DNA from: Candidatus Kaiserbacteria bacterium
GTDB taxonomy: Bacteria; Patescibacteriota; Minisyncoccia; Phycocordibacterales; UBA2100
Reading direction: 5' to 3'
Assembly (NCBI GenBank): GCA_963767115.1
Contig: CAVYCR010000003.1
Coordinates: 109,377 to 173,376 of the forward strand
Length of the DNA: 64,000 nt
Shown one piece after another: positions 4,838 to 41,002 of the stretch. Numbering within the stretch: the stretch's first letter is position 1; each line of letters opens with the position of its first letter. The notes below the pieces were generated by a model, which saw only the letters and a program-made list of their open reading frames with translations, searched no databases and had not been told where the DNA came from. A program made the translations under genes and the position numbers.

Positions 4838-5537
4838 AAAGACATGGGCAGACGAAAGAAACATTCGTGTAGTACAGCCCGAAAAGATCGATGAGGATTT
4901 TATCGACCTGCTCAAAACTGAAGAATGTGATGTGTTTGTCGTCGCATCGTACGGCAAGATCCTGCCGAAAGCACTACTTGATATTCCGCGTCGCGGCGTC
5001 GTCAACATGCACCCGTCACTATTACCAAGATTGCGCGGCCCATCTCCTATCCGCTCCGCCATTCTCAACGACGAGAAAGAAGTCGGTGTCTCGGTGATGC
5101 TGCTCGACGAGAAGATGGATCACGGGCCGCTGATCGCGCAGAAAAAAGTCGAGATGCCGTATTGGCCGATGCACGGGCTCGAGCTCGACGACCTCCTCGC
5201 GCGCGAAGGCGGCGAATTGCTCGCGGACTATTTGCCGCTCTGGATCGACGGTGATGGTCGAAGCGCACAACAAAACCACGATCTCGCGACCTATTGCTCG
5301 ATGTTCAAGAAGGAAGACGGGCTGATCGACATGCAAGACGATGCGCATTACAACCTGCTGAAGATTCGCGCACTGGAAGGCTGGCCGGGCACATTTACTT
5401 TCTTCGAACGCAACGGGAAACAGTTACGCGTAAAGATCATCGACGCACATGTCGAAAACGGAAATCTGATTCTCGATCGAATTATTCCCGACGGAAAACG
5501 TATTATGTCGTTCCAAGAATTCTCGCGCGGGCTCTAG
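4687..5537 (+). CDS. fmt: methionyl-tRNA formyltransferase, no canonical start codon and an internal -1 frameshift near 4789-4797
   Basis: The N-terminal frame reads (E)IKFVFFGTAPLADAVLGALEKEGHLPQLVVAAPD then runs to a stop at 4876-4878. The other frame reads ...PIRNAKDGEVILPTEKTWADERNIRVVQPEKIDEDFIDLLKTEECDVFVVASYGKILPK...NMHPSLLPRLRGPSPI (ORF 4932..5537). Inserting one base after 4791 gives VVAAPDRPIRNAKDGEV..., the canonical Fmt (PDRPxGRG) layout. Confidence 0.8.
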
Positions 5538-5541
5538 CGGT

Positions 5542-5671
5542 GGCCGCAAGGGCCTGCACCCTTTGCGAACTGGTACTGATTATCTGCTCGTACGTCTACA
5601 TCTGTGGCCGTACTTTGTATGGCGTTGGCGCGGTTAGGCAATGTTCGCAAAGGGTGCAGGCCCTTGCGGCC
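5542..5671. repeat. long perfect palindromic element: 29-bp stems (5542-5570 / 5643-5671) around a 72-nt loop, filling the gap between the convergent fmt and hpf stops
   Basis: The left arm ggccgcaagggcctgcaccctttgcgaac is the exact reverse complement of the right arm gttcgcaaagggtgcaggcccttgcggcc. Confidence 0.85.
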
Positions 5672-6123: not shown

Positions 6124-6747
6124 TTACATTGTAAGCAACGAGCTCGTATCAGGGCATGTAACTGGTACACCCCTGCTCAGAAATGATGCTAGCTCAAGCG
6201 TCTCAGCCGAATGGCCGAGCTGACGAGCAGTAAACGCATGCGTCGAATCATAGAGCCAAAAAGAGGCCCGCTGATTCCAAGGTTTGATGAACAACCCTAA
6301 ACGCATCTTTACCGTCACATTTCTAATTGCATGCCCCTGCTCATCTACTCTGTGGTAATGAACGAGGAACATATCTTCAACCGAAGCTGTCGGTACGATC
6401 GGACGCACTACACTGACGTCTGTGACGTCACACAGAAATGTCTCGCTAGAAAAAGTAGGGTCACAATAGCGCTCATATCTTGCCTGCGGGACCAACCCAC
6501 AAAAGCGTTTCACTATTCCTGAAACTCTTCTGCACTCTGCGCCCGAAAGCCGATTAAGAGCAGTATTTGCCGGCTGGCTTCTCACTTTCGCCAGTACTTC
6601 TTCCAATTCTCCAACTCCTTCCTCGTAATCGCGAAACATTTCTATATGGTTCCTAAAACCAACCATCACTTGTGCTCCAGACCATTTCACTATAGGCACC
6701 TTGCAGTACCTAAGGCTTATACAACCATACTCCTGTACTTCTTTCAA
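6124..6747 (-). CDS. hypothetical protein (207 aa, Cys-rich)
   Basis: It is a long ORF with its own terminator. No recognisable family. Confidence 0.4.
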   Translation of the reverse strand: MKEVQEYGCISLRYCKVPIVKWSGAQVMVGFRNHIEMFRDYEEGVGELEEVLAKVRSQPANTALNRLSGAECRRVSGIVKRFCGLVPQARYERYCDPTFSSETFLCDVTDVSVVRPIVPTASVEDMFLVHYHRVDEQGHAIRNVTVKMRLGLFIKPWNQRASFWLYDSTHAFTARQLGHSAETLELASFLSRGVPVTCPDTSSLLTM

Positions 6748-6884: not shown

Positions 6885-6957
6885 TCCGCGGTAGCTCAGT
6901 TGGTAGAGCGGCCCGCTGTTAACGGGTTGGTCGTAGGTTCGAGTCCTACCCGCGGAG
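6885..6957 (+). tRNA. tRNA-Asn (anticodon GTT)
   Basis: Cloverleaf: acceptor tccgcgg/ccgcgga, D-arm gctc-agttggta-gagc, anticodon stem gcccg/cgggt with loop ctGTTaa, T-arm gtagg-ttcgagt-cctac. Discriminator is g and CCA is not encoded. Confidence 0.9.
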
Positions 6958-7029
6958 CTTGACATTTTAAATAATTCTGTCATTTTAATGACAGTTGATA
7001 GCTTAGACCACTACGAAAGGACCGGGATC

Positions 7030-7701
7030 ATGAGTTTCTGGACAGCACATGGTTACTTGGGTGGCCTCTTTTACATCATATTTCTCCTCCTATTGCCACG
7101 CTTGACCATGTTCGTCTCGGCAGTTGGCTCTGTAGGAATATTAGTGTATCTGACTGCGCCATTTGGCTTTGCCCACACACCTCTTGGGTTTCCAGTTGGA
7201 TTACTCGGGATATTCGTGTGGGTCTTCTTTCCTCGTTTTCTTGTTGCCGCACTGGCAACAGGGCTCTACTTCGAGACCAACACAGTGCTATGCGTAGAAG
7301 CCTGGATACTTGCATACGTTATCTTGGATGCCAAAAAAGGAATAGCCGAAGAAAGGGCTAAGAAACGTCAGAAGGAGCAGGAAGAGGCCATTCGAGATGA
7401 GGCCGCTCGAGTTGCTGCAGAAAAGACTGCAGAACAGAAAAGGCGCACGCGCGGCTCTGATCAACAATCAGGACAGCAACGTAGGCAACGGCCCACTCAG
7501 TCAGCGGGCCAACGAGCGCAGCAGTGGTGGGATGTGTTGGGCGTCAGTCCTTCTGCATCCGCTGACGCTATCAAAGCAGCATATCGTCGAATGGCAAAGA
7601 CGACACATCCCGATAGTGCCCCTGATGGCAAAGGCGATGTGGAACGCTTCCGCAAGGCCAGTGAAGCCTATAAGGCAGGGCTCAGTCGCAATGGCAAATA
7701 A
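7030..7701 (+). CDS. membrane protein with C-terminal DnaJ (J) domain
   Basis: Several N-terminal transmembrane helices are followed by a Lys/Glu/Gln-rich linker and WWDVLGVSPSASADAIKAAYRRMAKTTHPDSAPDG, a J-domain with the HPD motif. Confidence 0.6.
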   Translation: MSFWTAHGYLGGLFYIIFLLLLPRLTMFVSAVGSVGILVYLTAPFGFAHTPLGFPVGLLGIFVWVFFPRFLVAALATGLYFETNTVLCVEAWILAYVILDAKKGIAEERAKKRQKEQEEAIRDEAARVAAEKTAEQKRRTRGSDQQSGQQRRQRPTQSAGQRAQQWWDVLGVSPSASADAIKAAYRRMAKTTHPDSAPDGKGDVERFRKASEAYKAGLSRNGK

Positions 7702-7706
7702 GCCGA

Positions 7707-7738
7707 CCCGTGGTGGGGCAACTCACCACGGGTTTTTA
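7707..7738 (+). terminator. intrinsic terminator after the J-domain protein gene
   Basis: A 9-bp stem (cccgtggtg ... caccacggg) is followed by ttttt. Confidence 0.7.
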
Positions 7739-7891
7739 TACAAAACTCAACCTACTTAATTCCCTCTCGACTTTCGCCCAATCGATATTTCGAAACTTAT
7801 CCAGTTCGGGGAGCATCCACAAAATACCCTTATTTTCCTTGCTATTCTAGATACGTAGGTAGGACAACCGAACCTAGCAAGCAATAACCGC
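7739..7891. repeat. intergenic repeat R1, copy 1 (about 153 bp); second copy at 11505-11657
   Basis: The copies are about 80% identical: caaaactcaa..ttcaattccctctc...ccagttcggggagcatcca.aaaatac...ttgctatt.tagatacgtaggtaggacaa.cgaacctagc..g..a.taccgc. Both follow a terminator hairpin of a + strand gene. Confidence 0.75.
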
Positions 7892-7950
7892 TTGAGGCTT
7901 TTTGCATGAGAAAGGCTCGTCGCGTGAACGACGAGCCTAACGGTCTTGGA

Positions 7951-8214
7951 TCAGGGTTGTGCTTCGAGCCGGTCGGCTTCAGCGACGAGCTCAATCGCCT
8001 TCTCGCGATGAAGTCGAGCACGTTCGCGAGCTTCTGCCGCAGTTCCGAGTTTGCCGGATGTTGCCCCGAAGGCGGCGGTAATCTGGTCGATGCGCTCGGC
8101 CTTCTTATCCTCGATATCTGCGAGGTCCAGTTCCGACTTTGCCGCAACATATTTGATCGCGGCATCGGTCTTTCTGTACTTGACTAGTGTTGCTGGCGAC
8201 CACGATATTGCCAT
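7951..8214 (-). CDS. hypothetical small protein (87 aa)
   Basis: An AGGAGG ribosome-binding site lies 7 nt upstream of the ATG. Composition is protein-like, and the overlapping + strand ORF looks spurious. Confidence 0.45.
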   Translation of the reverse strand: MAISWSPATLVKYRKTDAAIKYVAAKSELDLADIEDKKAERIDQITAAFGATSGKLGTAAEARERARLHREKAIELVAEADRLEAQP

Positions 8215-8331
8215 TGGGTACCCTCCTTTGCAGTCTTATCTATAATATATTGGATAATCTATGTCAAGCTGGCTGGTTTGTGACCACTCAATTCTTATGG
8301 TATAAAAATATCTGCCACAAGGGAGGTTGCA

Positions 8332-8868
8332 ATGGTATATGCTAGGCGCCTGAACGACGAGAACGCTGCGCAGGCTCAGGCCGAAATGGATGCAGAGTTG
8401 GAGAAGCTTCGCCAGGTCGGATTCTTGGCTGCGCCGAAACCGAAGCAGGGCCAATCCGCACGGCCCGTGCCGGTACGTATCCCGATTGTCGTAAAGACGA
8501 GGAGTCCTTCGGTAGTCGTTGAAATGAAACCTAAAGCACGTCTCAGCGACGGTGAGCTTTGCGCTCGACGCGCCGCTGCCGCACTGCAGCGAAAGAAGAC
8601 ACAGGAGAAAGTCGTGACTCGTACTGAATCCCCCAAGGTGGATGAAGCTGCTGAAGCGAGGAAAGATATGAGGAATTCATATCTTCCTATCGCGGTCCGC
8701 ATAATGGCCGCCGAATGCCTCGGTTATACGGTAACGTACCGTGGGCCTGAAGATCACCCACGGCGCATCATATTCCGGCACCCGCGGGGTAAGCTGCGCA
8801 TCGCGATCATGTTCCCCAAAGGCCGGACGAAACGACGTGAGGCAATGGCCGCATTCAATCGTCGTTGA
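8332..8868 (+). CDS. hypothetical basic protein (178 aa)
   Basis: A GGGAGG ribosome-binding site lies upstream of the ATG at 8332, divergent from 7951..8214 across a promoter-like AT-rich spacer. Confidence 0.45.
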   Translation: MVYARRLNDENAAQAQAEMDAELEKLRQVGFLAAPKPKQGQSARPVPVRIPIVVKTRSPSVVVEMKPKARLSDGELCARRAAAALQRKKTQEKVVTRTESPKVDEAAEARKDMRNSYLPIAVRIMAAECLGYTVTYRGPEDHPRRIIFRHPRGKLRIAIMFPKGRTKRREAMAAFNRR

Positions 8869-9056
8869 TAGCGACGGATGCCACCCCGATGAATTGATCG
8901 GTCACGATATACAGTCGCCCCTGCCAACAAGCTCGGGCGGCTTTTTCTTTGACGAGCCGTTCTCAGCAGGGTATCGGAACTTTTTTGTTTACGGCACTTT
9001 GTCCTTGTGATATCGTCCGGTCAGTATGAAGAAGCAGGGTGTGGAAGGAGCTGACG

Positions 9057-9281
9057 ATGCAAGAATATGAACTGCAATTCCGAGCGCCTACGATCCGAAG
9101 AGGCGGGAAGATTAAATACAACAAGCGGCGCAGACGATTCTTTGCGAAGGATAATGAGGAGGCGAGATCGGACGTTGACCGTTTTCTCAAAGAAAAAAGT
9201 GTCCTGCTAGATGGAAAGACTTATCATGCTAAGAATGCAAAACTCTTCCGTCTCGTACCGGTTGACTACGTTCTCGTCTAG
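9057..9281 (+). CDS. small basic hypothetical protein
   Basis: A GGAAGGAG ribosome-binding site lies upstream of ATG 9057 (MQEYELQF...). Confidence 0.3.
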   Translation: MQEYELQFRAPTIRRGGKIKYNKRRRRFFAKDNEEARSDVDRFLKEKSVLLDGKTYHAKNAKLFRLVPVDYVLV

Positions 9282-9388
9282 GCCGCCGACATCCTCTGGA
9301 CTCAGTGGTCTTTCCCGGGGTTATCCTTTTGTCTCATTTGACTCTCACCTATGATTAAACTATGGTGAAGATGGAAGGAAGGTGTCCT

Positions 9389-9655
9389 ATGTTAATCACA
9401 CTTGTAGCGGTACTTTGTCATTCTGTATCCGGGATTCCAGAACCCGTCTGCGTAGAGGAGATTGTCACTGATAACGACATGAGCGGCATTACTTGGATGT
9501 CGTGTCAGGTCTCGGCGCAAGAAGGCATCTCGAAATGGATGTCCGAAAACCCGAAGTACGCCGCGAGCATCGAGGCGCCGCACGCGGAAGGTTCCTGGCA
9601 TCTTTCCAAATGGAAATGCGTTCCCGGTCAGTACTCGATAGCAGGGAAGGCATAA
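9389..9655 (+). CDS. small secreted Cys-containing protein
   Basis: A ribosome-binding site (gaaggaagg) is followed by MLITLVAVLCHSVSG, a signal-peptide-like N-terminus. Confidence 0.35.
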   Translation: MLITLVAVLCHSVSGIPEPVCVEEIVTDNDMSGITWMSCQVSAQEGISKWMSENPKYAASIEAPHAEGSWHLSKWKCVPGQYSIAGKA

Positions 9656-9953
9656 TGAGAGGAGAAGGAAATGGCACGATACGAAGGGCGCCGCGACCGG
9701 CAACCTTGCAGGATATGTCCGGAAGACGCCCATATCATCGCAATCATTGGCGGGTATCCATGTCTCTTCTGTTCGAAGACACACGAGCTCACCTACAGAG
9801 CCCTCGCCACCGGAAGCGGAGGCGGTCTCAAGAAGAAATCGCATTATACACTCGACGGAGCATTCGACTCCTCGAGTGTCTCTGTTTTATGCGATCCAAT
9901 CTTTCTTACATCCTACCCCAGCACGACAGCAATTCTACCGTCGATACGTTATC

Positions 9954-10128
9954 ACCTTGAGTGCAGAGCCAGAAGCATCATTTCAACGTCCACAGACATC
10001 CTTCTGTGGTTTGTTGTGGCCCTCGGTGGCGCGAGTATTATTGCCGTCCTACGCTTTCCCCTACCATCCCCGAAAACCCTTGTGTTCCCTCACCATTGTA
10101 GGTTCGAAGGTCGTTCAACATGCGGAGC
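9954..10128. repeat. intergenic repeat R2, copy 1 (about 175 bp); second copy at 14035-14218
   Basis: This is an about 85% identical direct repeat (accttgagtgcag.gc.agaagc.tcatttcaacgtccac.gacatccttctgtgg.ttg.tgtggccctc...). Both copies end ...gtaggttcgaaggtcgttcaacatgcggagc, which partly resembles the 3' T-arm/acceptor of the tRNA-Asn at 6885. Confidence 0.8.
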
Positions 10129-10200
10129 AAACTTGACACAGTGTGCATACTGTGATATTAAATTTATGGACAATCTCGTCCTTTAAGAAAGAGGTGCTTC

Positions 10201-10566
10201 GTGACCGAAGTCGAAAGCTGTGGCCTCAAAATCGAGGACTTTGTGAAAACGATACAGCCCGATGGCACTGTCGTTTTTACTCACAAGACCTTCAATGACC
10301 GTATCGAGCTCACGCCGAATCAATCGCCGCTCTGGTTCTTCTTGAAAATCAGAGAGTTCTCGGAGAAACACGGTGTTCTGATGTGTCCCGAGATGGCGAA
10401 GCTGACTAACGGACTTGAGGCTGACTTTTACGGCGGTCTGGAACGTTTCGAGCACGAACTATCAGCGTCTATGGACCGAGATCTCGACGACGCATTCGAT
10501 GCGGAGATATTCGGATCAGACGAAGACGATATTATGCTCGGCTTTGAGCTCGCAAAGAGAAAATAG
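10201..10566 (+). CDS. small acidic hypothetical protein (GTG start)
   Basis: The ribosome-binding site aagaaagagg precedes GTG at 10201. 121 aa, acidic C-terminus. Confidence 0.4.
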   Translation: MTEVESCGLKIEDFVKTIQPDGTVVFTHKTFNDRIELTPNQSPLWFFLKIREFSEKHGVLMCPEMAKLTNGLEADFYGGLERFEHELSASMDRDLDDAFDAEIFGSDEDDIMLGFELAKRK

Positions 10567-10785
10567 GAGACCGCTATGTCTACAAGACCGTAACCCCGCC
10601 CGATGTGGCGGGGTTTTTTATTGAGAGGTTTAAAAAGTTCAGCTCATCCGCAATACGTTTCCAGTCCAAAGTTCTGAACGCATCCAATCGGCGGAGCTTG
10701 ACATTCTGGCATAATATATTAAAATACCGATTAGTTTTGAAAGTGCATCATTTTGATGTGCTCGCACGTTGAAAAGAGGTCTGAC

Positions 10786-11451
10786 ATGGAAAATCGCCAT
10801 ATCTCCGAAGCTCACAAGTGGCTCGGTCATCTACGCAACGGCACCGACATGTACGACTCGTTCATCGGCCACGTTCGCAAGGAAGCCCATAAAGGCAACC
10901 TCACGCTCGAAGATGTCGGCACCAGCGAAGCCGAACTTGCCGAAGTGAAGGTGAAGGGTTGCAAGACCGCCGCCAACAAGTGGCTCGGTCATCTACGCAA
11001 CGGCACCGACATGTACGACTCGTTCATCGGCCACGTTCGCAAGGAAGCCCATAAAGGCAACCTCACGCTCGAAGATGTCGGCACCAGCGAAGCCGAACTT
11101 GCCGAAGTGAAGGTGAAGGGTTGCAAGACCGCCGCCAACAAGTGGCTCGGTCATCTACGCAACGGCACCGACATGTACGACTCGTTCATCGGCCACGTTC
11201 GCGAGGAAGCCCAGAAGGGCGGCCTCACGCTCGAAGATGTCGGCACCAGCGAAGCCGAACTTGCCGAAGTGAAGGTGAAGGGTTGCAAGACCGCCGCCAA
11301 CAAGTGGCTCGGTCATCTACGCAACGGCACCGACATGTACGACTCGTTCATCGGCCACGTTCGCGAGGAAGCCCAGAAGGGCGGCCTCACGCTCGAAGAT
11401 GTCGGCACGAGCGAGGAGGAGCTTGCATCTCTCAATCGCCACGTCGCCTGA
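10786..11451 (+). CDS. tandem-repeat protein (about 4 x 54-aa repeat KWLGHLRNGTDMYDSFIGHVRKEAHKGNLTLEDVGTSEAELAEVKVKGCKTAAN)
   Basis: The ribosome-binding site AAAGAGG precedes ATG 10786. Four near-identical 162-bp DNA repeats span 10816-11451, and copies 1/2 and 3/4 are pairwise identical. Confidence 0.6.
   Translation: MENRHISEAHKWLGHLRNGTDMYDSFIGHVRKEAHKGNLTLEDVGTSEAELAEVKVKGCKTAANKWLGHLRNGTDMYDSFIGHVRKEAHKGNLTLEDVGTSEAELAEVKVKGCKTAANKWLGHLRNGTDMYDSFIGHVREEAQKGGLTLEDVGTSEAELAEVKVKGCKTAANKWLGHLRNGTDMYDSFIGHVREEAQKGGLTLEDVGTSEEELASLNRHVA
10816..11451 (+). repeat. 162-bp tandem repeat x about 3.9 (coding)
   Basis: The direct repeats are nearly perfect at nucleotide level. The alternative-frame ORF 11121..11588 is an artefact of the repeat. 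Confidence 0.85.
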
Positions 11452-11470
11452 CACTTGCACAATCAACCGA

Positions 11471-11500
11471 AAGCCGCCCTTCCACAAGGCGGCTTTTCAC
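11471..11500 (+). terminator. intrinsic terminator after the repeat-protein gene
   Basis: The stem aagccgcc ... ggcggctt is followed by tttt. Confidence 0.65.
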
Positions 11501-11504
11501 TTTA

Positions 11505-11657
11505 TGCAAAACTCAATCCGTTCAATTCCCTCTCCACGCCCGCCCAATTAATCGTTCGAAAAGCGTCCAGTTCGGGGAGCATCCATAAAATACGTTGATT
11601 TTGCTTGCTATTTTAGATACGTAGGTAGGACAATCGAACCTAGCGAGAAATTACCGC
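11505..11657. repeat. intergenic repeat R1, copy 2
   Basis: See copy 1 at 7739-7891. Confidence 0.75.
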
Positions 11658-11764
11658 AACGCGATTGCGCTTCGCTAGAGAATTTACAACCAACAATGTA
11701 TCATTGCCAGGAGTGGACTTCAGTAATATAGTCGTGCTGGATCACTTGAACATAGGTGAGAATC

Positions 11765-12058
11765 ATGGACATACCGAAACATTCCGTCGTACGAGACCTA
11801 GCGGGCGATGTCATAAGTCCAATAAATCTTCCACCCCCTGGTTATTCCCGGTGGACGCCCAACAAAAAGGCCATTGTCGTCCGTGCTGTACGCGCCGGTC
11901 TTGTGACACTACAAAGCGTGCTCGACCGTTATCAAATGACAGAACAAGAGTTTTCGATTTGGGAACATGGCTTGTACGATGACGGAGCGACAGGGTTAAA
12001 GATTACAAAGTATCAGAAGCGTAGAAGAAAAAGGGCAGCGAGTTCTGGTAAAGATTAA
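11765..12058 (+). CDS. DUF1153-like small HTH protein
   Basis: The sequence ...YSRWTPNKKAIVVRAVRAGLVTLQSVLDRYQMTEQEFSIWEHGLYDDGATGLKITKYQKRRR matches the DUF1153 pattern (RWTxxRKAxVVxAVxxGxLSLEEAxxRYxLSxEEFxxW). Confidence 0.4.
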   Translation: MDIPKHSVVRDLAGDVISPINLPPPGYSRWTPNKKAIVVRAVRAGLVTLQSVLDRYQMTEQEFSIWEHGLYDDGATGLKITKYQKRRRKRAASSGKD

Positions 12059-12066
12059 AAAGAAAT

Positions 12067-12088
12067 GGGTCGACCTTTCGGTCGACCC
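12067..12088. terminator. bidirectional hairpin between convergent genes (gggtcgacc-tttc-ggtcgaccc)
   Basis: A perfect 9-bp stem sits between the stops of 11765..12058 (+) and 12099..13034 (-). Confidence 0.55.
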
Positions 12089-12098
12089 TTCTACTTTA

Positions 12099-13034
12099 CT
12101 ATCCCCGCGAGATTCTTCGAGCAACATCGCGCAGTAGATCCGTAATTCCGACCACGCCAGAGTTCAGTGAAATTTGACTTGGATTTTCACTGATAGGCTC
12201 ATTCGATGATCCGAGCACATAGCCGCGCCCCCATACGGTCACGATGAGTTTCCCCGCATCGGGATGCGCATCGGTGAGCTTCTTACGTAATTTGCATACG
12301 AAGACGTCAATGATTTTCATCTCCGGCTCATCGTCTAATCCACCGGTGTATAGCTGAGTCAAAATCATTTCTTTCGAGAGAACACGTCCAGCCGTCGACG
12401 CTAACAGCAACATCAAAGCAAGCTCTTTGCCAGTGAGTTCGACCGGTCTCTCATTAATCAACACTGATTTGGTTGTCAGGTTGACTTTGAGCCTTGCTTC
12501 GCCGCTTTCGCATTCGAATATGTCAAGCAAGGCTCCTTTGAAACGCCTCGTGGCGGCTCGTAGTGATGCAACGAGCTCGCGAGGGTTCTCAGGTCCTCGC
12601 AATAGATCGTCGCCGCCATTTTCAAGAAACATGGCGCGATGGTCGCCCCACACTCTATCTTCTGATCCACGCGAAATGCCGATGAGCGGCATTGTCATTT
12701 TATTCACTCGCAAGCCACGAGCAAAGTAAATGCCAAGACCACTCTTCTCAAGATCGATAACACCAGCATCGCATGGGCCATTTAGGAGCCAGGCCCGCAA
12801 GTCCTCGGTATTCTCGACATCTTCTTGTTCAACGGCGATACCATTATCGCGTAAGAAAACGATTGTGGTACTGTCGAGTCCTGCTGCAAAGACCTTCATA
12901 GCCACCTCCATTGAGAACTGGTTAAACGCTAGTTCTATAGCGGAGTAAAACACAGCATATTGGTAAAGTCCACATAGAAAAAATGGGCCCCGAGGGGCCC
13001 ACGATAGTAGTCCACGTCGAAGGTGATCATTCAC
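12099..13034 (-). CDS. OmpR/PhoB-type winged-helix transcriptional regulator with atypical N-terminal receiver-like domain
   Basis: The C-terminus (ERPVELTGKELALMLLLASTAGRVLSKEMILTQLY...CKLRKKLTDAHPDAGKLIVTVWGRGYVL) is a Trans_reg_C domain. The N-terminal 190 aa are only weakly receiver-like and lack the N-terminal acidic pair. Confidence 0.55.
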   Translation of the reverse strand: MNDHLRRGLLSWAPRGPFFLCGLYQYAVFYSAIELAFNQFSMEVAMKVFAAGLDSTTIVFLRDNGIAVEQEDVENTEDLRAWLLNGPCDAGVIDLEKSGLGIYFARGLRVNKMTMPLIGISRGSEDRVWGDHRAMFLENGGDDLLRGPENPRELVASLRAATRRFKGALLDIFECESGEARLKVNLTTKSVLINERPVELTGKELALMLLLASTAGRVLSKEMILTQLYTGGLDDEPEMKIIDVFVCKLRKKLTDAHPDAGKLIVTVWGRGYVLGSSNEPISENPSQISLNSGVVGITDLLRDVARRISRG

Positions 13035-14016
13035 CTACGATCGCCTTGTGTATATCGCCAAGGTATCCGATAAGCTGCTGGACCAGCTTGGCGTCATACT
13101 CGCGGTCAACTTTCTCATTATCGCGAGTTCCGTACAGCGCATTGACGTCTAGATCTTGGTGTACGCGACGCGCTCGATTGAGCGTGCCTCCGATAAAGGC
13201 CTTGAGCGCCTTGTAGTCATCGGACGGTTTGCGCATACGCCCGCTGATGCCGTAACCACTTTTGCCTGTTTTCACTGAGATAAGTGTCCGAGTTTCCACG
13301 ACACCAAGGTTGCGTTCGATTGCTTCCCTGGCAATGGTAACTTGGAGCGCCGGGTCGTTGGTGCTTCGTGCAATGTCAATCGCTGCCGTCACGGTCAAGC
13401 GTTCATCCTTATGTCTTGTCGGGTCCATAAGTAGCTTAACCACATCAGGCAAAGTGTGCATCTGCAAGTAGCCGTCGACGTGCGTGAAGGACTTCTTCAC
13501 AATTGTCGCAATCTCGGTGACCCGTGCACGATGACTTCCCGTACCTTCATCATAAAGACGCTGGTATGCTGCCGCCTCGTCCTGCGGAATAAGATCCTCA
13601 CGATTCAGGTTATCGAGCAATGCTTCTCGGAAGTGATGCCGCTCATCGTTGACTGTGTCAATGAAGCATTTAACGAGCGGGTCACCGCCATTGCGTTCTT
13701 GAATGATGCCGAATGCCCGCAATCTACGTTCACCACCGATAAGTACGAACACACCTTTCTCAGATGAATGCTTGCAGACTCGCACAGGGGTCTTTTGACC
13801 ATCCCGTTCAATAGCGTCAGCAAGATCATCTAGCCCCCTCGGATCAAAGTACCGTCGGGGCTGACCATCGAAGCGTTGGATGCGACTGAGTTTAACAAGA
13901 AGTGGCTGACCAAGCCCGCTCTCATCGCTATTTTCAATAACACGCAGTGCTAGCTTATTCATCTCTACCTCCTTTTGGGTTGCATTTAGATCAAAACTCA
14001 ACCGATAATGCCACAT
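13027..14016 (-). CDS. ParB-like nuclease/partition domain protein
   Basis: The ParB N-terminal motif VLIGGERRLRAF (GERRxRA) is present. The probable true start is MNKLALRV, slightly downstream of the listed start. Confidence 0.65.
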   Translation of the reverse strand: MWHYRLSFDLNATQKEVEMNKLALRVIENSDESGLGQPLLVKLSRIQRFDGQPRRYFDPRGLDDLADAIERDGQKTPVRVCKHSSEKGVFVLIGGERRLRAFGIIQERNGGDPLVKCFIDTVNDERHHFREALLDNLNREDLIPQDEAAAYQRLYDEGTGSHRARVTEIATIVKKSFTHVDGYLQMHTLPDVVKLLMDPTRHKDERLTVTAAIDIARSTNDPALQVTIAREAIERNLGVVETRTLISVKTGKSGYGISGRMRKPSDDYKALKAFIGGTLNRARRVHQDLDVNALYGTRDNEKVDREYDAKLVQQLIGYLGDIHKAIVGE

Positions 14017-14034
14017 CTTAGAAATTACACAACG

Positions 14035-14218
14035 ACCTTGAGTGCAGGGCTAGAAGCGTCATTTCAACGTCCACTGACATCCTTCTGTGGCTTGCTGTGG
14101 CCCTCTGGGGCGCGTGCATTACGGTTGTCCCATGTTTTCCCTCACCGACCCTGAAAACCCTTGTTTTGCCTCAAGGTTTAGGTTCGAAGGTCGTTCAACA
14201 TGCGGAGCCCAATAGGCA
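14035..14218. repeat. intergenic repeat R2, copy 2
   Basis: See copy 1. The 3' end of the excisionase-like gene overlaps the last about 24 bp of this copy. Confidence 0.8.
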
Positions 14219-14419
14219 TACTGATTTTTGCGTTTTATGAGACGCTAAGAAGCTTTCAAATTCTCTGGTCTCAATGCGAAATTCTTTGCCGAATTTGTAC
14301 GCCTTAAGCCTCCCTGCCTTTATATAGCGGTAGATCGTCATTACGTTAACACGGAGCGAGTCTGCGAGTTCCTGAGCGGTATAGAAGTCTTTCTCCTTCG
14401 CCATAATGTTTAGAATCAT
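14195..14419 (-). CDS. excisionase-family helix-turn-helix DNA-binding protein
   Basis: YTAQELADSLRVNVMTIYRYIKAGRLKAYKFGKEFRIETREFESFL matches the HTH_17/Xis pattern. Confidence 0.65.
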   Translation of the reverse strand: MILNIMAKEKDFYTAQELADSLRVNVMTIYRYIKAGRLKAYKFGKEFRIETREFESFLASHKTQKSVCLLGSAC

Positions 14420-14432
14420 ACCTTACAATGCT

Positions 14433-15545
14433 TTACACGCCAAACGTGCCTGTGGACACGCGGAGCGGCTCATAATGCGCAAGGGCGCGATCTACCTGCC
14501 CAATCCAATTATGCTCGGGAAACACGCCCTCAATGCGCTTTAAATCCCCTAGGACGCGTCTGTGCCATGCTTCCCTAGAGAAGCTCCGCGAAAGGGTCGC
14601 TCTGAATCCACGCATTCCATCTGCATCCTTTGAGAGCATGGCAAGCCCCGCGAGGTATATTGCCTCTTTTGCATCCTTTGCAATTTTCTTGCGAAGAATC
14701 AGCTCAAACATGGTTTGCGGCTGGACCGGAGACGTAAGAATTGAAACACTGGCTTTCTTTATGGCCTCCCATTCCCGCCGTAGTGCCGCCATAGCGACGC
14801 CGTGGCTGAATACATCCTTGAACAGCACCTCGTCTTTGTTTTTCGGACCGAATACTGCCTGTCTTACCTCCTTTTTATTGCCATATCGCGCCTCTATCCG
14901 GAGAATCTCCGGCACAAGTTCCACCTTTTTCCAGTCGAACAGTGAAAGTTGTTTTGCCGTTTGCTCTTTGTCTACAGCCTTAGATTTTGGCCTTAGAAGG
15001 TCTTTTACTTTGTCGTAGAACACCACCTCGCGATCATGCGTGTGAGCCAGATGAAGGGCATGGCCAGCATCCGGAAAACGGTCCCTTTCTATGCCGAGAT
15101 ACCTTGGAAGGTCGACTTTGCCAAGATCGCTCAATATCGGCTGAACGCTATAACCATCTTTGAGAACTATGTTTTTCCCAAAATGCACTGCGGATACTAT
15201 CGCAGTCCGTAAATGCTCTATCGTTACGAAAATATCCTGCTCCCTCAACGTATCGCGTAGCTTTTCGAGGACCGCTGGAAAATCTGCGTCCGAAAACTCG
15301 TTTACATTATCTCCCCACATCATCTTAGGGAGTGAGACCTCAAACTGCAAAGAGAATCCTTCGCCACGCCTTATTACTCGTAAACGAGGCCGCGTCTTGC
15401 CGTCTTTTTTCTGTTCGGTAGTATGCGGTTTGAGCCATTTTTGATACCCGCTTCGCCTGCTATTTAGCTCCCATTTTTGCCCATCCGGATTTGTTATACG
15501 GGCAAAAGTATTGCTGTTCAAAGTCAAAACGATTGTATCTATCAT
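14433..15545 (-). CDS. Rep_trans-like (rolling-circle type) replication initiation protein
   Basis: The N-terminus MIDTIVLTL.. resembles the IDYLSFTF start of the family. VVFYDKVKDLL resembles the RIYdK motif and ILRIEARYGNKKE resembles the lwRvEielk motif of pT181-type Rep proteins. Assigned from motifs only. Confidence 0.45.
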   Translation of the reverse strand: MIDTIVLTLNSNTFARITNPDGQKWELNSRRSGYQKWLKPHTTEQKKDGKTRPRLRVIRRGEGFSLQFEVSLPKMMWGDNVNEFSDADFPAVLEKLRDTLREQDIFVTIEHLRTAIVSAVHFGKNIVLKDGYSVQPILSDLGKVDLPRYLGIERDRFPDAGHALHLAHTHDREVVFYDKVKDLLRPKSKAVDKEQTAKQLSLFDWKKVELVPEILRIEARYGNKKEVRQAVFGPKNKDEVLFKDVFSHGVAMAALRREWEAIKKASVSILTSPVQPQTMFELILRKKIAKDAKEAIYLAGLAMLSKDADGMRGFRATLSRSFSREAWHRRVLGDLKRIEGVFPEHNWIGQVDRALAHYEPLRVSTGTFGV

Positions 15546-15547
15546 AT

Positions 15548-15763
15548 TTATTCGCTATCTAATAATTTGCCATCTTCGGCGTCTAAACGTCGTTCGATCT
15601 CCAACAGTTTGCCGAAAAAACGTCCAACTTCCGGAATCGAAAAATCGCTAGCAACGATCACGCACGTAGACTCTTTACCTTTTGTATCGTTTGCTGTAGG
15701 CATGTACAACACACTCGCACGCGCCGCATAATGCGTCGTAGTAGGCGGACTGCTTCGGTCCAC
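15548..15763 (-). CDS. small hypothetical protein (71 aa) upstream of the Rep gene
   Basis: It is tightly packed on the same strand. No homology signal. Confidence 0.25.
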   Translation of the reverse strand: MDRSSPPTTTHYAARASVLYMPTANDTKGKESTCVIVASDFSIPEVGRFFGKLLEIERRLDAEDGKLLDSE

Positions 15764-16187
15764 ATAGGACGTTATCCTACAAGGGACTCTTATCTATCGG
15801 CCGCGCTCTATTCAGGGAATACAAATCAAGCCACTATCTATATGAGCGATGAGGTTGAAGCCAGTCTGCCGACCAGTGTGCAAGCGTATGTTTCTCCTGT
15901 CTCCTCGAATACAAACGCCTTGAATATCCAAAACTGGTCCATTGCAGAGCTTGGTGTGCCGCCGTATCCAGAGAATAGGATTTACGAGAGCGTGGCAAAG
16001 GAGGTATGTGCCTTGTCCAACAAGCCTACTCAACTAAATCTCATCATTCAAGATGAGCGAATGTTCAATGATGGTCTGAAACGGAACTACACGTGCGCTG
16101 ATTTGCAGTCAAGCTACCATTGACAAATATTTAATACGTGATACAATAACATTAGCGGACTTCCCCGCACTTTGTAAGGAATCTGAA

Positions 16188-16463
16188 ATGTCGAAGCTCG
16201 TAACTCTGGCTTTTGTCATCCCCGCCTTCTTGTCCCCCGTGGCGGCAAGCGCCGACTATCTGCCGAACCCCGACGATATGACTCGGCACATCGACCGCAC
16301 TGGCAACGTGCAGCAGCAGATTGCCTCTGTCGGAATCTGCCTCAAGGTGCGTGGCATCGAGTACAAGGTCATGCAGGGCTATACGGGAACCGACATTGTC
16401 GTTTTCGGCGGCGCAAAGGCGTCGTCCGATACGAAAGCGCACATTGACGAATGTTTCAAGTAG
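16188..16463 (+). CDS. small secreted protein (signal peptide)
   Basis: The ribosome-binding site AAGGAA precedes MSKLVTLAFVIPAFLSPVAASA. Confidence 0.45.
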   Translation: MSKLVTLAFVIPAFLSPVAASADYLPNPDDMTRHIDRTGNVQQQIASVGICLKVRGIEYKVMQGYTGTDIVVFGGAKASSDTKAHIDECFK

Positions 16464-16725
16464 CCAGCAGTCCCACACTACGCCGCCACTTCGGCGGGAC
16501 GAATGCCATCGCTTCGTCTCGTACGGAGCGGCGGCATTTCTTTTTAAGTATTCATCGCAAAAGAAGGGCACCGATAGATAAACTGGCTTTTTCCCTCTAT
16601 CAAACAGGTTCTAACGTCGTCCAGTCCTCGGAGCAAAATTTGATTTTTTAATACAGAATGTTATTACTATTGCGGTTACGGACTTGGTATCCGTTGCTCA
16701 AATTCACCAATCCGAGGAGGATGCC

Positions 16726-17151
16726 GTGATAGACATTAAGGACAAAGTATTCACCGAGTGCGATTCCATCGCCAAAGATCTTGAAGGATTCAGGGCTGCG
16801 ATTCAAGGCATGTCAAAGGAAGAGGTCGTCCTTCATCTTCTTTCTCGTCCTGTGGGAGAAAACACGGCCTATGCCATCTGGGTACATGCCGATCGCCTCT
16901 CTTATAATATACCCCAGGAACTACTGAGGAAGACTGTTGAGGCCCGTAAACTCTCGCCAGACGAAGAGCCTGACACGGAGTCCGAGATCCTCGTTGAGTT
17001 CGAAGGCGAACGCTATGGCGTGAAGACGGCGTTCCTCTACGATGGCACGGGCTTAGCGGTGAGTCTCTGCGACGCGCGCTATATTGTGCCAGTCGGACCT
17101 TGGAGCCACGAGACGCCGCCCAAGCCAGAGGGTGGATGGAAATCTGCCTGA
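16726..17151 (+). CDS. hypothetical protein (GTG start after GAGGAGG)
   Basis: GAGGAGG lies 6 nt upstream of GTG 16726. The listed upstream ATG (16684) lacks a ribosome-binding site. Confidence 0.4.
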   Translation: MIDIKDKVFTECDSIAKDLEGFRAAIQGMSKEEVVLHLLSRPVGENTAYAIWVHADRLSYNIPQELLRKTVEARKLSPDEEPDTESEILVEFEGERYGVKTAFLYDGTGLAVSLCDARYIVPVGPWSHETPPKPEGGWKSA

Positions 17152-17547
17152 TCTTCTAACGAACCACAACTCGAAGGCGGCGCTGCGAAGCGTCGCTTTT
17201 CTTTTACACAAACCCTAACCTTTGAACCTCTCTTGCTATACTTCTCCACTTGAAAGTTCTGAAATCATCCAGCCTATTGGGGAAAAATGCTACCTGACAT
17301 ACTGCGATTGTTTACCTTCAATGTGTTGCTGCTGCGGTATTGAGATGTTTTCTACGGAGCATGACTGACACCATTTTCCCGATCGCACGAACAGCGTACC
17401 GTGCCTTCAAAAGACGCACGATGACCGCCCGATCTTCGCCTCCAATGTGTGTATGTGCCATATCCCAAGAGTGTGGAGGTCCTCTAGGGTGGTGCAATTA
17501 GCCTGCAAACTTTGGTGCTTTTAGAGTGAGAATTCACTCGCGTGTAT

Positions 17548-26047: not shown

Positions 26048-26146
26048 GCATATATTATACACACCTGTAATAAACGATCCTGCAGAGAGGTATTATTAAT
26101 CGAAGATTAATGAAGTATCTTATTTATAAAAATACATTACAGGGAT

Positions 26147-28243
26147 ATGCACTTTCATATGTATCGCGCTCTTAGATCTGTTTCGCTTTTAGTCATTTCA
26201 AGTAGCGTCGCGCTTTTTGCACCACTGGCCTTCGCGTACGCGGATGTCTCGGTTTCTATCCAGTCGCTCTCGCCCAGCAACACTGTGACAGTCGGAACGA
26301 CGGTCTCTTTCTCGGTCACGGAGACTGGCTTCACCAACCCGACCTACACGATCACGGACCCGACAAGCGGCAGCAGTATCACGACCAACGACATCAACTC
26401 AAGCGGCAACTTCTCATGGACGCCCGAGAGCATCGACGTGGGTACGCACAGCCTTACGATCACCGTAAACGACGCGCAGGGTGACACTGCAAACACACAG
26501 GAATCTATTACCGTCAATCCGACGCCTACTCTTACCCTAGGCTCGCTTTCGCCGGGAACCTCTATCACTGCCGGGCAGACAGTAAGCTTCGCTGCGACCA
26601 CCAACGGCTTCACCAACCCAACTTTTAGCGTCAGTGATTCGCTCAATGGTTCGTCAGTATCCAACAACGACATCAATCCCTCCACTGGTGCCTTCTCCTG
26701 GACACCGGCAAGCAATCAAACGGGTACGCACACGATCACGATGTATGCGACAGATGCACTCGGACACAGCGCAAACGCAACTGAGACGATCATCGTCGGT
26801 TCGACGCCTGTGGTCGCGATACAATCACTCTCGCCGGGCTCGAGCGTGGGCGTCGGCCAAAACGTGACCTTTACCGCACTTGCATCCAACTTCAACGACC
26901 CTTCGTATACCGTAAGCGACACCTTCGGCAATAGTTCAGTCTCAGACAACAATATCAACTCTTCAGGCCAATTCTCGTGGACACCGGAGACGAGCGACAT
27001 CGGCACGCATACGATCACCGTGACGGTCAACGATGCATCCGGTCATAGTTCGACTGCGACGCAGACGATCACGGTCTCGAGCAGCAGCGTGGTGAGCGGC
27101 ACCGGCGGCGCGACCGTACAAGGTCTTTCGCCCGGCACCAATGTAATAATCGGCCAGCCTGTCTCCTTCACTGTCGCTGCATCCGGCTTCAGTAATCCCG
27201 TCTTTAGCGCGCAAGATTCTTTCTCTGGTTCGACTATGACTGGGAGCGACATCAATTCCGCTGGCTATTTCTCATGGACACCTACCAGCTCTGACACAGG
27301 GACGCACACCATCACTGTCTACGTGAATGACTCTTCGGGCCATACCGGCAATGTGACGCTTCAGCTCACCGTCAATCAGCCAAACATTACCATCACCTCG
27401 ATCAACCCGGGCACGACCGTCCTTGAGAATTCCCTGCTCACCTTCAACGTGACGCCCGCAGGCTTCACCAATCCGACCTACACGCTTTCGGATTCTTTCA
27501 GCGGCACAACGATCAGTACTTCAAACATCAACTCTTCGGGTCAGTTCTCATGGACGGCGCTTGCGAGCCAAGTGGGTACGCATACGATCACCGTCTCGGC
27601 GACCGATGCCTCGGGACACAACACCACGACGCAGCTCGTCATCGACGTGACGGCGAGCGGTACGGCAGTCACGCCGACCACGACAAGCAGCGCTTCCCTG
27701 AGCACGCTCGAGACGGAGCTCGCACAAGCCGAAGCTGCGCTCCAAGCTGCGCAAGGGACGAGCGGATCGTCAGCAACGAGCCAGCTCACCGAGAACCTCT
27801 CTTTCGGCATGACCGACGACCAAGTAACGACACTGCAAAACCTGCTCGCAGCGCACGGCTATTTCTCGGGCACGGCGACGGGCTATTTCGGAGGACAGAC
27901 ACAGGCCGCCGTGGAGAGATTCCAGAGCGCAAACGGCATCAGTCCGATCGGCATCGTGGGCCCTGCGACGCGCGAAGCGCTCAACAGCCTGAGTACCACC
28001 GCGACTGCGAGTACTTCGACCGGTGACGGCTATGTATTCTCCAACTTCATCGGCATGGGTAGCACAGGCACCGACGTGACCGAACTGCAAAAGCGCCTCA
28101 CCGCGCTCGGCTTTTACTCCGGCCCAGTCACCGGCACCTTCGGCTCACTCACCCAGGCGGCGGTCAAGGCATTCCAAGCCGCCCACGGCATCACCCAAGC
28201 CGGCTACGTCGGCCCGGGCACGCGTGCGGCCTTGAATCAGTAA
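26147..28243 (+). CDS. secreted surface protein: signal peptide, six about 100-aa Ig-like repeats, two C-terminal peptidoglycan-binding (PG_binding_1) domains
   Basis: The repeat SLSPGxxVxxGQxVSFxxxxxGFxNPxYxxSDSxxGSSxxxxDINSSGxFSWTPxxxDxGTHTITV occurs six times. The C-terminus has TTLQNLLAAHGYFSGTATGYFGGQTQAAVERFQ and TELQKRLTALGFYSGPVTGTFGSLTQAAVKAFQ. Confidence 0.75.
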   Translation: MHFHMYRALRSVSLLVISSSVALFAPLAFAYADVSVSIQSLSPSNTVTVGTTVSFSVTETGFTNPTYTITDPTSGSSITTNDINSSGNFSWTPESIDVGTHSLTITVNDAQGDTANTQESITVNPTPTLTLGSLSPGTSITAGQTVSFAATTNGFTNPTFSVSDSLNGSSVSNNDINPSTGAFSWTPASNQTGTHTITMYATDALGHSANATETIIVGSTPVVAIQSLSPGSSVGVGQNVTFTALASNFNDPSYTVSDTFGNSSVSDNNINSSGQFSWTPETSDIGTHTITVTVNDASGHSSTATQTITVSSSSVVSGTGGATVQGLSPGTNVIIGQPVSFTVAASGFSNPVFSAQDSFSGSTMTGSDINSAGYFSWTPTSSDTGTHTITVYVNDSSGHTGNVTLQLTVNQPNITITSINPGTTVLENSLLTFNVTPAGFTNPTYTLSDSFSGTTISTSNINSSGQFSWTALASQVGTHTITVSATDASGHNTTTQLVIDVTASGTAVTPTTTSSASLSTLETELAQAEAALQAAQGTSGSSATSQLTENLSFGMTDDQVTTLQNLLAAHGYFSGTATGYFGGQTQAAVERFQSANGISPIGIVGPATREALNSLSTTATASTSTGDGYVFSNFIGMGSTGTDVTELQKRLTALGFYSGPVTGTFGSLTQAAVKAFQAAHGITQAGYVGPGTRAALNQ

Positions 28244-40925: not shown

Positions 40926-41002
40926 GTAATACACATAATCTTTTCAGCATTTAAATAGTGGCCTTGAATTTCTTGCTACAATGCAGGAACGTTAAATATT
41001 GC

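Follow-up and report, generated by a model that had tools for sequence, protein, structure and literature searches.

Staphylococcal cassette chromosome elements (SCC, SCCmec) form composite islands in which a large serine recombinase (LSR) inserts units at the 3' end of one conserved gene, rlmH, and in which the tandem units are bounded by direct repeats of the sequence at the insertion site. SCC elements encode their own replication proteins for the excised circle, and recombinase-less units lie beside recombinase-bearing units. One composite SCC island, which includes a ccr-less pseudo-SCC element, is described in a preprint (bioRxiv 10.1101/336396). In integrons, short, mostly single-gene and integrase-less units are chained in one orientation beside a fixed primary site; a conserved site ends each unit, and related ends enclose unrelated genes. 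Cis-mobilizable elements (CIMEs) accrete beside integrative and conjugative elements (ICEs) at one att site, as in the streptococcal ICESt1/ICESt3 family, and are att-flanked, recombinase-less tandem units that rely on a neighbour's enzyme. The arrangements of all three systems are matched in part by a locus in a 64-kb stretch of DNA from a Kaiserbacteria/Paceibacterota genome of the Candidate Phyla Radiation (CPR), called the window hereafter when its whole length is meant. In the window, 6959-17282 is a foreign, island-like stretch adjoining tRNA-Asn. Our analysis indicates that it is probably a composite array whose segments were inserted serially at the 3' end of the tRNA gene, most likely by an LSR acting in trans. 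By analogy, the staphylococcal SCC composite island appears to be its closest counterpart. The kind of system is known; what is new is its occurrence in this host lineage, with arms that mimic a tRNA, with cassettes of very small size and with a driver family that bears Rep.

The host was identified by the def-fmt neighbourhood. The genes def, fmt and their neighbours left of tRNA-Asn are in synteny in about 20 Kaiserbacteria/Paceibacterota contigs from metagenome-assembled genomes, at 57-93% amino acid identity depending on the gene. tRNA-Asn(GTT) (6885..6958, + strand), found by ARAGORN and by the Rfam tRNA model at 71 bits, is the sole tRNA in the window. For comparison with relatives we used 24 syntenic loci anchored on the def-fmt neighbourhood. 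None of the open reading frames (ORFs) tested between 6124 and 18069 had a homologue in these 24 loci, and since the left flank is syntenic in about 20 of the contigs, the stretch has the status of an island. Most of its segments have a GC content of 48-52% (segment K4, at 55.6%, is the exception), compared to 54-56% in the flanks. An earlier interpretation of the window made from its letters alone (the sequence-only reading) had placed a tRNA-Asn at 6885 and proposed an island beside it, to be checked by composition and by comparison with relatives; the tRNA and both checks bear this out. At the base level, the relatives reached through the def anchor (57-68% amino acid identity) are too distant for an empty-site comparison, but they yielded the synteny break and the further arrays described below.

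Eight sites that resemble the T-arm and acceptor strand of tRNA-Asn, of the form (A/G)GTTC(T/G)(A/G)A..TCCA..GGAGC, are present from the tRNA 3' end (6958) to about 17282, all on the + strand, and delimit seven segments of 0.57-2.6 kb. They lie at 6936-6958 (the tRNA itself), 7787-7814, 10101-10128, 10670-10697, 11553-11580, 14181-14208, 16607-16634 and 17255-17282. Three pairs of direct repeats, of which the sequence-only reading had named R1 alone, were detected by a repeat search and blastn in the same stretch: R1 (9954-10128 and 14035-14208, + strand, 84% over 175 nt, continuing at lower identity to 10143 and 14223), R2 (7735-7891 and 11501-11657, + strand, 82%) and R3 (10650-10686 and 17235-17271, + strand, 78%). 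The three pairs are colinear, every copy is on the + strand and none on the minus, and blastn found no further copies elsewhere in the window. Both R1 copies, R1a and R1b, hold the identical 30-mer TAGGTTCGAAGGTCGTTCAACATGCGGAGC, which is similar to the tRNA-Asn 3' end. A third, partial R1 end is present at 16605-16649, and the tRNA end plus TTGACATT is copied at 10683-10705; the sequence-only reading had neither of these. The only match to the strict site pattern beyond the island (27227-27247, 21 nt, inside ORF 26147-28243) looks like a chance occurrence.

The junctions can be followed from the tRNA rightward. The 23-nt tRNA-Asn 3' end (6936-6958, + strand, GGTTCGAGTCCTACCCGCGGAGC) stands in our junction table as the attB-type left arm, and the array starts there. 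K1 (6959..7814, + strand) begins with TTGACATT and ends in the left part of R2a with the 28-nt site 7787-7814, ATTTCGAAACTTATCCAGTTCGGGGAGC. K2 (7815..10128, + strand) ends in R1a (9954-10128) and the 28-nt site 10101-10128. K3 (10129..10697, + strand) begins with AAACTTGACA and ends in R3a with the 28-nt site 10670-10697, and K4 (10698..11580, + strand) begins, like K1, with TTGACATT and ends in the left part of R2b with the 28-nt site 11553-11580. K5 (11581..14208, genes on both strands) ends in R1b (14035-14208) and the 28-nt site 14181-14208. K6 (14209..16634, - strand) has the left end CCAATAGG and a 28-nt site at 16607-16634. K7 (16635..17282, + strand) has the left end AAAATTTGA and a right end in R3b with a degenerate 28-nt site (17255-17282, AGTTCTGAAATCATCCAGCCTATTGGGG); the array probably has its right border there.

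By their ends the segments pair as K1 with K4, K2 with K5 and K3 with K7, and the cargo within each pair is unrelated; no similarity was found between the 121-amino acid (aa) protein of K3 and the 155-aa protein of K7. The 175-bp repeats are the homologous right ends of two related segments, K2 and K5, and not the two ends of one element. The sequence-only reading had seen these direct repeats and suggested that their 3' ends mimic the tRNA-Asn 3' end as att sites might. The repeats are real and the mimicry is upheld by the common 30-mer and the site form, but the second copy occupies 14035-14208 and the pair brackets 10.1-14.2 kb only, leaving the genes for Rep and the HTH_17 protein to its right. 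Two metagenome contigs found by an exact-pattern scan with the R1 end (L030 and L031; related loci carry L numbers) raise the number of R1 copies to four. Over 126 nt these are kept at 83-88%, similarity stops at a single base after GCGGAGC, and the sequence beyond differs in each of the four.

The arms of these sites come in two lengths. From the GGTTC block to GGAGC, true tRNA arms measure 23 nt in 5 of 5 cases (the window, L002, L003, L037 and L038) and element-side arms measure 28 nt in 14 of 14 (seven in the window, three in L030, two in L031 and one each in L003 and L038). The additional 5 nt come after the outer GGTTCGA block and before the inner TCC..GGAGC block. Rutherford et al. reported that the motif for the zinc-ribbon domain of serine integrases lies 5 bp nearer to the crossover in attB than in attP (PMC3783163); the group includes the integrases of Listeria phage A118 type ('LI'), Bxb1 and phiC31. 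In the sites described here the outer block is likewise 5 bp farther out in the element-side arm. The 23/28 pattern would fit the geometry of attB and attP, provided that the crossover dinucleotide lies within the shared GGAGC.

Similar arrays were found in other genomes. In L030 and L031 an R1 copy is followed by single-gene segments of 0.47-0.8 kb bounded by equivalent sites; these segments end in GGTTCTAACATCGTCCAGTCCTCGGAG(C/T) or GGTTCTGAACATGTCTACGTTCGGGAGC, and the next begins CCCTAAAAT..., CCTATAAT... or CCAATAGG... Among the def-fmt-syntenic relatives with tRNA-Asn in view, three of five have 28-nt arms after the tRNA and on its strand: L010 (12444-13376) with two arms and segments of about 0.47 kb, L006 (13688-15696) with one arm 2.0 kb downstream of the tRNA, and L016 (8925-10797) with two arms. 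Elsewhere in the 24 loci scanned there were only two stray matches to the 28-nt arm. Several left ends in the L006, L010 and L016 arrays read (A)AAC(T)TTGACA, like the window at 10129 and 6959. No recombinase domain was found in the array ORFs scanned, which were those of L006 and L010.

A likely source of the enzyme emerged from relatives of K6. For its Rep protein 60 homologues were detected, most of them on short contigs. In the four contexts with enough flank (L002, L003/L004, L037 from Moranbacteria, and L038) the gene order is a small ORF, Rep, HTH_17, defence genes (restriction or other) and an LSR of about 500 aa with Resolvase, Recombinase and Zn_ribbon_recom domains. The 3' end of the LSR gene overlaps the 3' end of tRNA-Asn(GTT) in 4 of 4 (L002, L003, L037, L038). 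The Rep region of L002 has 79% DNA identity to that of the window, and the left end of K6 is identical to the recombinase-side end of the L002 element, as the two junctions show (CCGCGGAGC|CCAATAGG in L002, GCGGAGC|CCAATAGG at 14208 in the window). The far ends of the relatives' elements (L003 AGTTCTAAGTTCATCCACCAAGGGGAGC|AAAG..., L038 GGTTCTGAACTCGTTTATTTTGGGGAGC|AAAC...) each carry a 28-nt site. By these comparisons K6 appears to be a deletion derivative of this CPR element family that has lost the recombinase and the cargo. It seems to have inserted in a junction of the R1|AAAxTTGA type, of which an uninterrupted paralogue is still present at 10128.

The tRNA-Asn(GTT) genes of L002 (6234-6447(-)) and L003 (17429-17669(-)) carry a group I intron of about 210-240 nt in the anticodon loop (Rfam, 71 and 73 bits) and are missed by ARAGORN, whereas the tRNA-Asn of the window is intron-free. 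A tRNA-Arg(TCT) lies inside the element between Rep and HTH_17 at 11206-11279 in L003 and at 3244-3317 in L005; it may be cargo or a second att site. Near related elements Rfam also reported a LOOT RNA (77 bits, L037 1785-1907) and a DUF3800-IX RNA (52 bits, L003 1879-1947).

Independent assemblies agree with the window across K5 and K6. Of two Logan contigs from run ERR11630394, L001 is identical to window 16635..14179 and L042 matches window 14208..11379 with a single 1-nt indel. The two break from each other because both overlap in the exact 30-mer common to R1a and R1b. A circular form of K6 would join 16634 to 14209 (...TCCTCGGAGC|CCAATAGG) and the emptied site would join 14208 to 16635 (GCGGAGC|AAAATTTGA). 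The other end of L001 and the end of L005 (position 2) fall one base past the element-side GGAGC|A, and the L005 end is the point at which the sequence of an integrated form (..GGAGC|AAAGTC) would part from that expected for a circle (..GGAGC|ACGGAAGG). These ends may hint at alternative junctions that coexist in the samples, though they are no proof.

We consider it probable, then, that 6959-17282 was built by serial insertion at the tRNA-Asn 3' end. The right end of each segment would be a 28-nt element-side arm that mimics the T-arm and acceptor strand. Since every segment ends on the right in such an arm, each internal junction would consist of one element's arm joined to the left end of the next, with the crossover in or beside the shared GGAGC. 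The LSR would act in trans, and the Rep-bearing family with its small ORF, Rep, HTH_17, defence genes and LSR would be autonomous. What we observe are the sites with their order and strand, the 23/28 rule, the relatives with an LSR at tRNA-Asn and the similar arrays of other genomes; that the enzyme is an LSR and that the segments move as circles is our inference, and some of them may still be mobile.

Several observations weigh against this account. The 5-bp rule was derived from aligned sequences. The last site (17255-17282) is degenerate toward its GGAGC end, the right half-sites lack clear dyad symmetry to the left arms, and K6 retains only about 9 nt of the recombinase-side end of L002. 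About 98 nt before the R1 arm show neither a coding nor an RNA-structure signal and have no assigned role. As the sequence-only reading had stated, no integrase was found in the window: tblastn with the LSRs of L002 and L003 gave zero matches in the 64 kb, and the island ORFs contain no integrase domain, so this genome shows no sign of array activity. The ParB, CtrA-like and SciP-like genes of K5 probably have a housekeeping role and would be odd cargo for a mobile cassette; they may instead be resident DNA flanked by insertions. Finally, to our knowledge wild-type serine integrases normally do not recombine attP with attL, attR or P|P' junctions. Since classical enzymes reject such hybrid sites and so form no arrays, tandem growth would need a promiscuous enzyme, as reported for Ccr.

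Four other explanations were considered. Site-specific recombination by an enzyme other than an LSR, for instance a tyrosine integrase supplied from elsewhere in the genome or by a helper element, would account for the layout, since tyrosine-integrase islands typically accrete in tandem at tRNA 3' ends and have repeated cores, and the window shows no recombinase to decide the matter. However, no tyrosine integrase was seen in the related loci examined, an LSR adjoins the junction in 4 of 4 full-length elements, and the 5-bp offset of the arms fits LSRs. We judge a non-LSR enzyme to be unlikely.

An equally improbable explanation is that Rep itself builds the array by nicking the tRNA-like sites, which would serve as origins and terminators, so that rolling-circle copying between neighbouring sites yields single-stranded circles that re-insert at tRNA-like hairpins, much as in CTX/RS1 prophage arrays or in one-ended transposition of the IS91 type. 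Rep has the catalytic motifs of Rep_trans/Phage_CRI proteins and a G2P-like fold, the sites are all co-oriented as origin/terminator pairs must be, and the true tRNA site holds a hairpin, the T-arm. Yet the 28-nt arms lose that hairpin, R1 folding z-scores are near 0, and no Rep is present near the arrays of L030, L031, L006, L010 and L016. In addition, the LSR gene abuts the tRNA junction in every full-length relative, which is the classic position of an integrase, and the 23/28-nt spacing is a serine-integrase signature.

Segmental duplication of intergenic regulatory DNA (TTGACA promoters and terminators), with the genes between later swapped, seems to us less probable still. The repeat pairs are indeed colinear in two consecutive blocks (6.9-10.7 and 10.7-17.3 kb), a TTGACA box comes after several of the junctions, the left end of K4 holds the best promoter-like site found in the island (10698-10725), and RNA and structure searches were negative. 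Against this, the sites hold the tRNA's strand even where the genes are opposite (K5, K6), equivalent sites bound unrelated genes in other organisms and always beside or downstream of tRNA-Asn, similarity stops at one exact base, and the element ends match LSR elements elsewhere. All three explanations, by another recombinase, by Rep and by regulatory duplication, are less likely than serial LSR insertion.

The least probable is a single integrated plasmid or decayed ICE carrying Rep, ParB, HTH_17 and the regulator pair, with the 175-bp repeats as attL and attR, which the sequence-only reading had proposed and which we abandon: the repeats are real and have tRNA-Asn-like ends, Rep, ParB and an excisionase-type HTH protein are present and a missing integrase is compatible with decay, but Rep and HTH_17 fall outside the repeat-bracketed interval, 84% identity over 175 nt is unlike the product of a single integration, six more tRNA-like sites and two further colinear repeat pairs subdivide the region into its seven segments, the Rep/HTH module in other contigs has its own recombinase but neither ParB nor the regulators, ParB and the regulators are likewise found in other contexts that lack Rep, and no conjugation domain (type IV secretion, coupling protein or relaxase) was found in the island ORFs.

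Serial LSR insertion also admits a wider form, which we offer tentatively and hold to be possible at best: Paceibacterota may own an integron-like cassette system run by an LSR, with the tRNA-Asn 3' end as the primary acceptor, the tRNA-mimicking 28-bp arm as the cassette site and Rep-bearing elements as the 'drivers'. Recombinases of the drivers would act in trans to capture, stack and shuffle cassettes of 0.5-2.6 kb, which often have a promoter of their own, and in this genome the ParB, CtrA-like and SciP-like trio would have been captured too, between cassette ends.

The comparison with described systems also brings out what is particular to the locus. Unlike SCC, the locus lies at a tRNA gene in a CPR bacterium, and the units, at 0.46-2.6 kb and often with a single gene, are much shorter; the Rep is a Phage_CRI/Rep_trans-type nickase, and the island holds no recombinase. 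Integrons use the tyrosine recombinase IntI and a folded attC, and the window has neither (R1 z-scores of -0.3 to 0.7); several window units carry their own promoter-like sequence, their genes lie on both strands, and the enzyme found elsewhere is a serine recombinase. CIMEs differ in that they depend on tyrosine integrases and conjugation. Full-text literature searches returned no paper that joins Patescibacteria, a serine recombinase and integrative elements.

The Rep gene of K6 (14433-15545(-)) encodes a protein of 370 aa. In Pfam the protein reached Phage_CRI just above the cutoff (22.4 bits vs 21.7, E 1e-4), a model that only 5 of 36 Rep homologues reach (best E 1.4e-7), and it had no match to the Rep_trans model of Pfam or to NCBIfam or PHROG models. 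Phage_CRI and Rep_trans are regarded as related families (PMC4797284, PMC5714925). In an alignment of 36 Rep sequences D3, Y177, D178, K179, R216 and E218 are invariant and D182 nearly so. Y177-D-K179 and R216-x-E218 fit motif III (YxKxxE/D, that is Y-x-K-x-x-acidic) and motif IV (RxE) as defined for these families (PMC5714925), motifs that the window Rep shares with pT181 RepC/RepD and with the gene II protein of Phage_CRI, and D3 supplies an N-terminal acidic residue. The AlphaFold model (pLDDT 84.6) matched viral models in BFVD by Foldseek with a probability of 1.0 (E 7e-9 to 9e-6, TM 0.39-0.50), Inoviridae G2P included. Against the PDB it gave weak matches only, of the TATA-binding protein (TBP) type, with no RepD/RepDE; according to Carr et al. 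TBP shares the sheet topology of Rep_trans (PMC4797284). Rep had no sequence match to any solved structure. By its motifs and predicted fold, its assignment as a Phage_CRI/Rep_trans-type initiator stands. The sequence-only reading, which had called it Rep_trans-like, is thus supported in the initiator motifs and the fold and not in a Rep_trans match as such. Unlike the known initiators of these families, this type of Rep resides on an integrative element with a serine recombinase and not on a plasmid or phage, and it probably replicates the excised circle. An integrated filamentous phage, suggested by the Phage_CRI match, was rejected: there was no phage DNA match, no PHROG match for Rep, and no coat-like or Zot-like ORF was seen.

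The other genes of K6 are HTH_17 (14195-14419(-)), a 71-aa ORF (15548-15763(-)) and small ORFs at 15842-16123(+) and 16188-16463(+). The Pfam HTH_17 domain in 14195-14419(-) agrees with the excisionase-type protein named earlier; it is possibly a directionality factor.

K5 carries a trio of genes. The first (11756-12058, + strand) encodes a SciP-like DUF1153 protein (Pfam DUF1153, 74.5 bits vs a cutoff of 23.5), the second (12099-12899 within ORF 12099-13034, - strand) a CtrA-like winged-helix regulator of 266 aa in which Pfam finds Trans_reg_C only and no receiver, and the third (13027-13962 within ORF 13027-14016, - strand) a ParB with ParB_N and HTH_ParB above thresholds. The ParB call, also made by the sequence-only reading, gains NCBIfam TIGR00180 (parB_part) at 77.6 bits vs 58.45. 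Among the ORFs of the island no ParA was noticed. The best NCBIfam model for the regulator is CtrA, at 131 bits vs a cutoff of 350 (the next model reaches 73 bits), and the only NCBIfam match of the DUF1153 protein is SciP, at 76.6 bits vs a cutoff of 100. Relative to true CtrA the regulator has 46% identity over 184 aa, with the N-terminal 55 aa not alignable; the motif DEPE(L/M)KIIDVF(I/V)CKLRKKL is nearly identical in the two, and the DNA is 75-78% identical over about 120 nt.

About 115 of the 120 CtrA-like homologues listed are winged-helix only, without Response_reg, and four near the end of the list have a receiver. Those named by source run from Paceibacterota, Kaiserbacteria and Parcubacteria down to true alphaproteobacterial CtrA near the list end. 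An alphaproteobacterial source of the window, prompted by the DUF1153 and ctrA-like DNA matches, was rejected since the def-fmt neighbourhood is that of Kaiserbacteria/Paceibacterota and the CtrA-like family is widespread in CPR.

The order ParB, CtrA-like, DUF1153 is repeated in L032-L036 at 64-75% amino acid identity (trio at 11756-13962 in the window, 6937-8732 in L032, 7030-9098 in L034 and 4665-6733 in L035). Its neighbours elsewhere are unrelated, with pilus genes and groEL in one lineage and TspO and a reverse transcriptase in another, and no tRNA-like site lies beside the trios of L032-L036. The sequence-only reading had described an orphan OmpR/DUF1153 pair as cargo. Trans_reg_C without a receiver and DUF1153 are as it said, while the notion of orphan cargo falls because the trio with ParB is conserved in relatives. 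To judge from gene order, the trio appears to be a lineage-conserved module, situated here between cassette-type ends. As in the CtrA/SciP system of Alphaproteobacteria, a CtrA-type DNA-binding domain lies beside a gene whose best model is SciP; unlike that system, the window receiver is degenerate, the host is a CPR bacterium, the genes are in synteny with parB and the scores are under the NCBIfam cutoffs. No CtrA box (TTAA-N7-TTAA) is present in the island; the window has a single one, at 26096, which is no more than chance would give. Full-text literature searches found no paper discussing CtrA in CPR lineages: the co-occurrences of Patescibacteria with CtrA were unrelated surveys, and the papers listed for Parcubacteria, Kaiserbacteria or Paceibacterota made no mention of CtrA.

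The remaining cargo is mostly without family matches. K1 encodes a membrane protein (6988-7701) with a J-domain at the C-terminus (Pfam DnaJ, 51.6 bits). The small ORFs of K2 (7842-8165(-), 8332-8868, 9039-9281 and 9362-9655) match no family; neither does the sole gene of K3 (10201-10566), which is followed by a terminator-like hairpin at 10592-10615, nor the sole gene of K7 (16684-17151). The K4 gene (about 10786-11451) encodes four 54-aa repeats. The underlying array (10814-11414) is 162 bp x 3.7 copies at 98% identity, in agreement with the four near-identical 162-bp repeats noted before, and this identity in the DNA points to recent expansion. Its 25 protein homologues range in length from 121 to 377 aa, a spread that suggests a variable number of units, and one of them is encoded downstream of a tRNA-Leu in a different CPR genome.

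The repeats themselves were examined for other functions. A structured RNA in the 190-nt repeat (tRNA-like, tmRNA-like or intron-derived) was rejected, with no Rfam match at gathering score or E<=5; single-sequence folding of R1 plus arm did not depart from background, as the z-scores above indicate, and the four-copy consensus had one compensatory pair with a covariation term of -0.88. The intron-split tRNA-Asn of relatives raised the possibility that R1 is the remnant of a group I intron and its 3' exon; this too was rejected, with no similarity by eye and no Intron_gpI match in the window. R1 as coding sequence (ORF 9671-10186) was rejected because an indel breaks the frame between copies and there is no + strand ORF in the second one. 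A 20-nt inverted match (14208-14227 and 17262-17281) was dropped as a candidate for terminal inverted repeats, being at chance level by estimate for its seed and length.

Two further features were noted near the arms. The stretch of about 98 nt before the R1 arm is kept at 83-88% in four copies (window 10000-10100 and 14081-14180, L030 2343-2442, L031 2539-2636), with unrelated adjoining genes; it could be a binding region for an accessory protein. By eye, an inverted T-arm-like copy was spotted about 45-65 nt inside the left ends of K2 (7855-7878) and K5 (11621-11644). Its reverse complement is TAGGTTCGGTTGTCCTACCTAC, compared to TAGGTTCGAGTCCTACCC in the tRNA, and a similar GGACATTCGAAC occurs at left ends of L030 cassettes.

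Outside the array, an ORF just upstream of tRNA-Asn (6124-6747(-), 207 aa, 47% GC) has no family match and no relative in the genome collection or the syntenic loci; it may represent an insertion of its own, on the side of the tRNA opposite to the array. A perfect 29-nt inverted repeat (5542-5570 and 5643-5671, 72-nt spacer) lies between fmt and the next gene. The fmt ORF (4932-5537) as called begins at position 83 of the Formyl_trans_N profile and only about 90 nt from def, so that it may be N-terminally short or its start miscalled. Window 40958-50941 is one ORF of 3327 aa.

A large part of bacterial diversity belongs to the CPR, whose mobile elements have received little description. If serial LSR insertion is correct, tRNA-Asn would be a lineage-wide hot spot of gene gain in tiny genomes, served by defence-carrying elements and by trains of recombinase-less cassettes. 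The conserved CPR trio raises the question of a CtrA/SciP-style circuit outside the Alphaproteobacteria. The 23/28 rule, if true, would make available a set of naturally occurring sites, attB-like and attP-like, that belong to a single serine-integrase family, and this set could be useful to study, or to engineer, the discrimination of partner sites and the tolerance that some of these enzymes have for tandem insertion.

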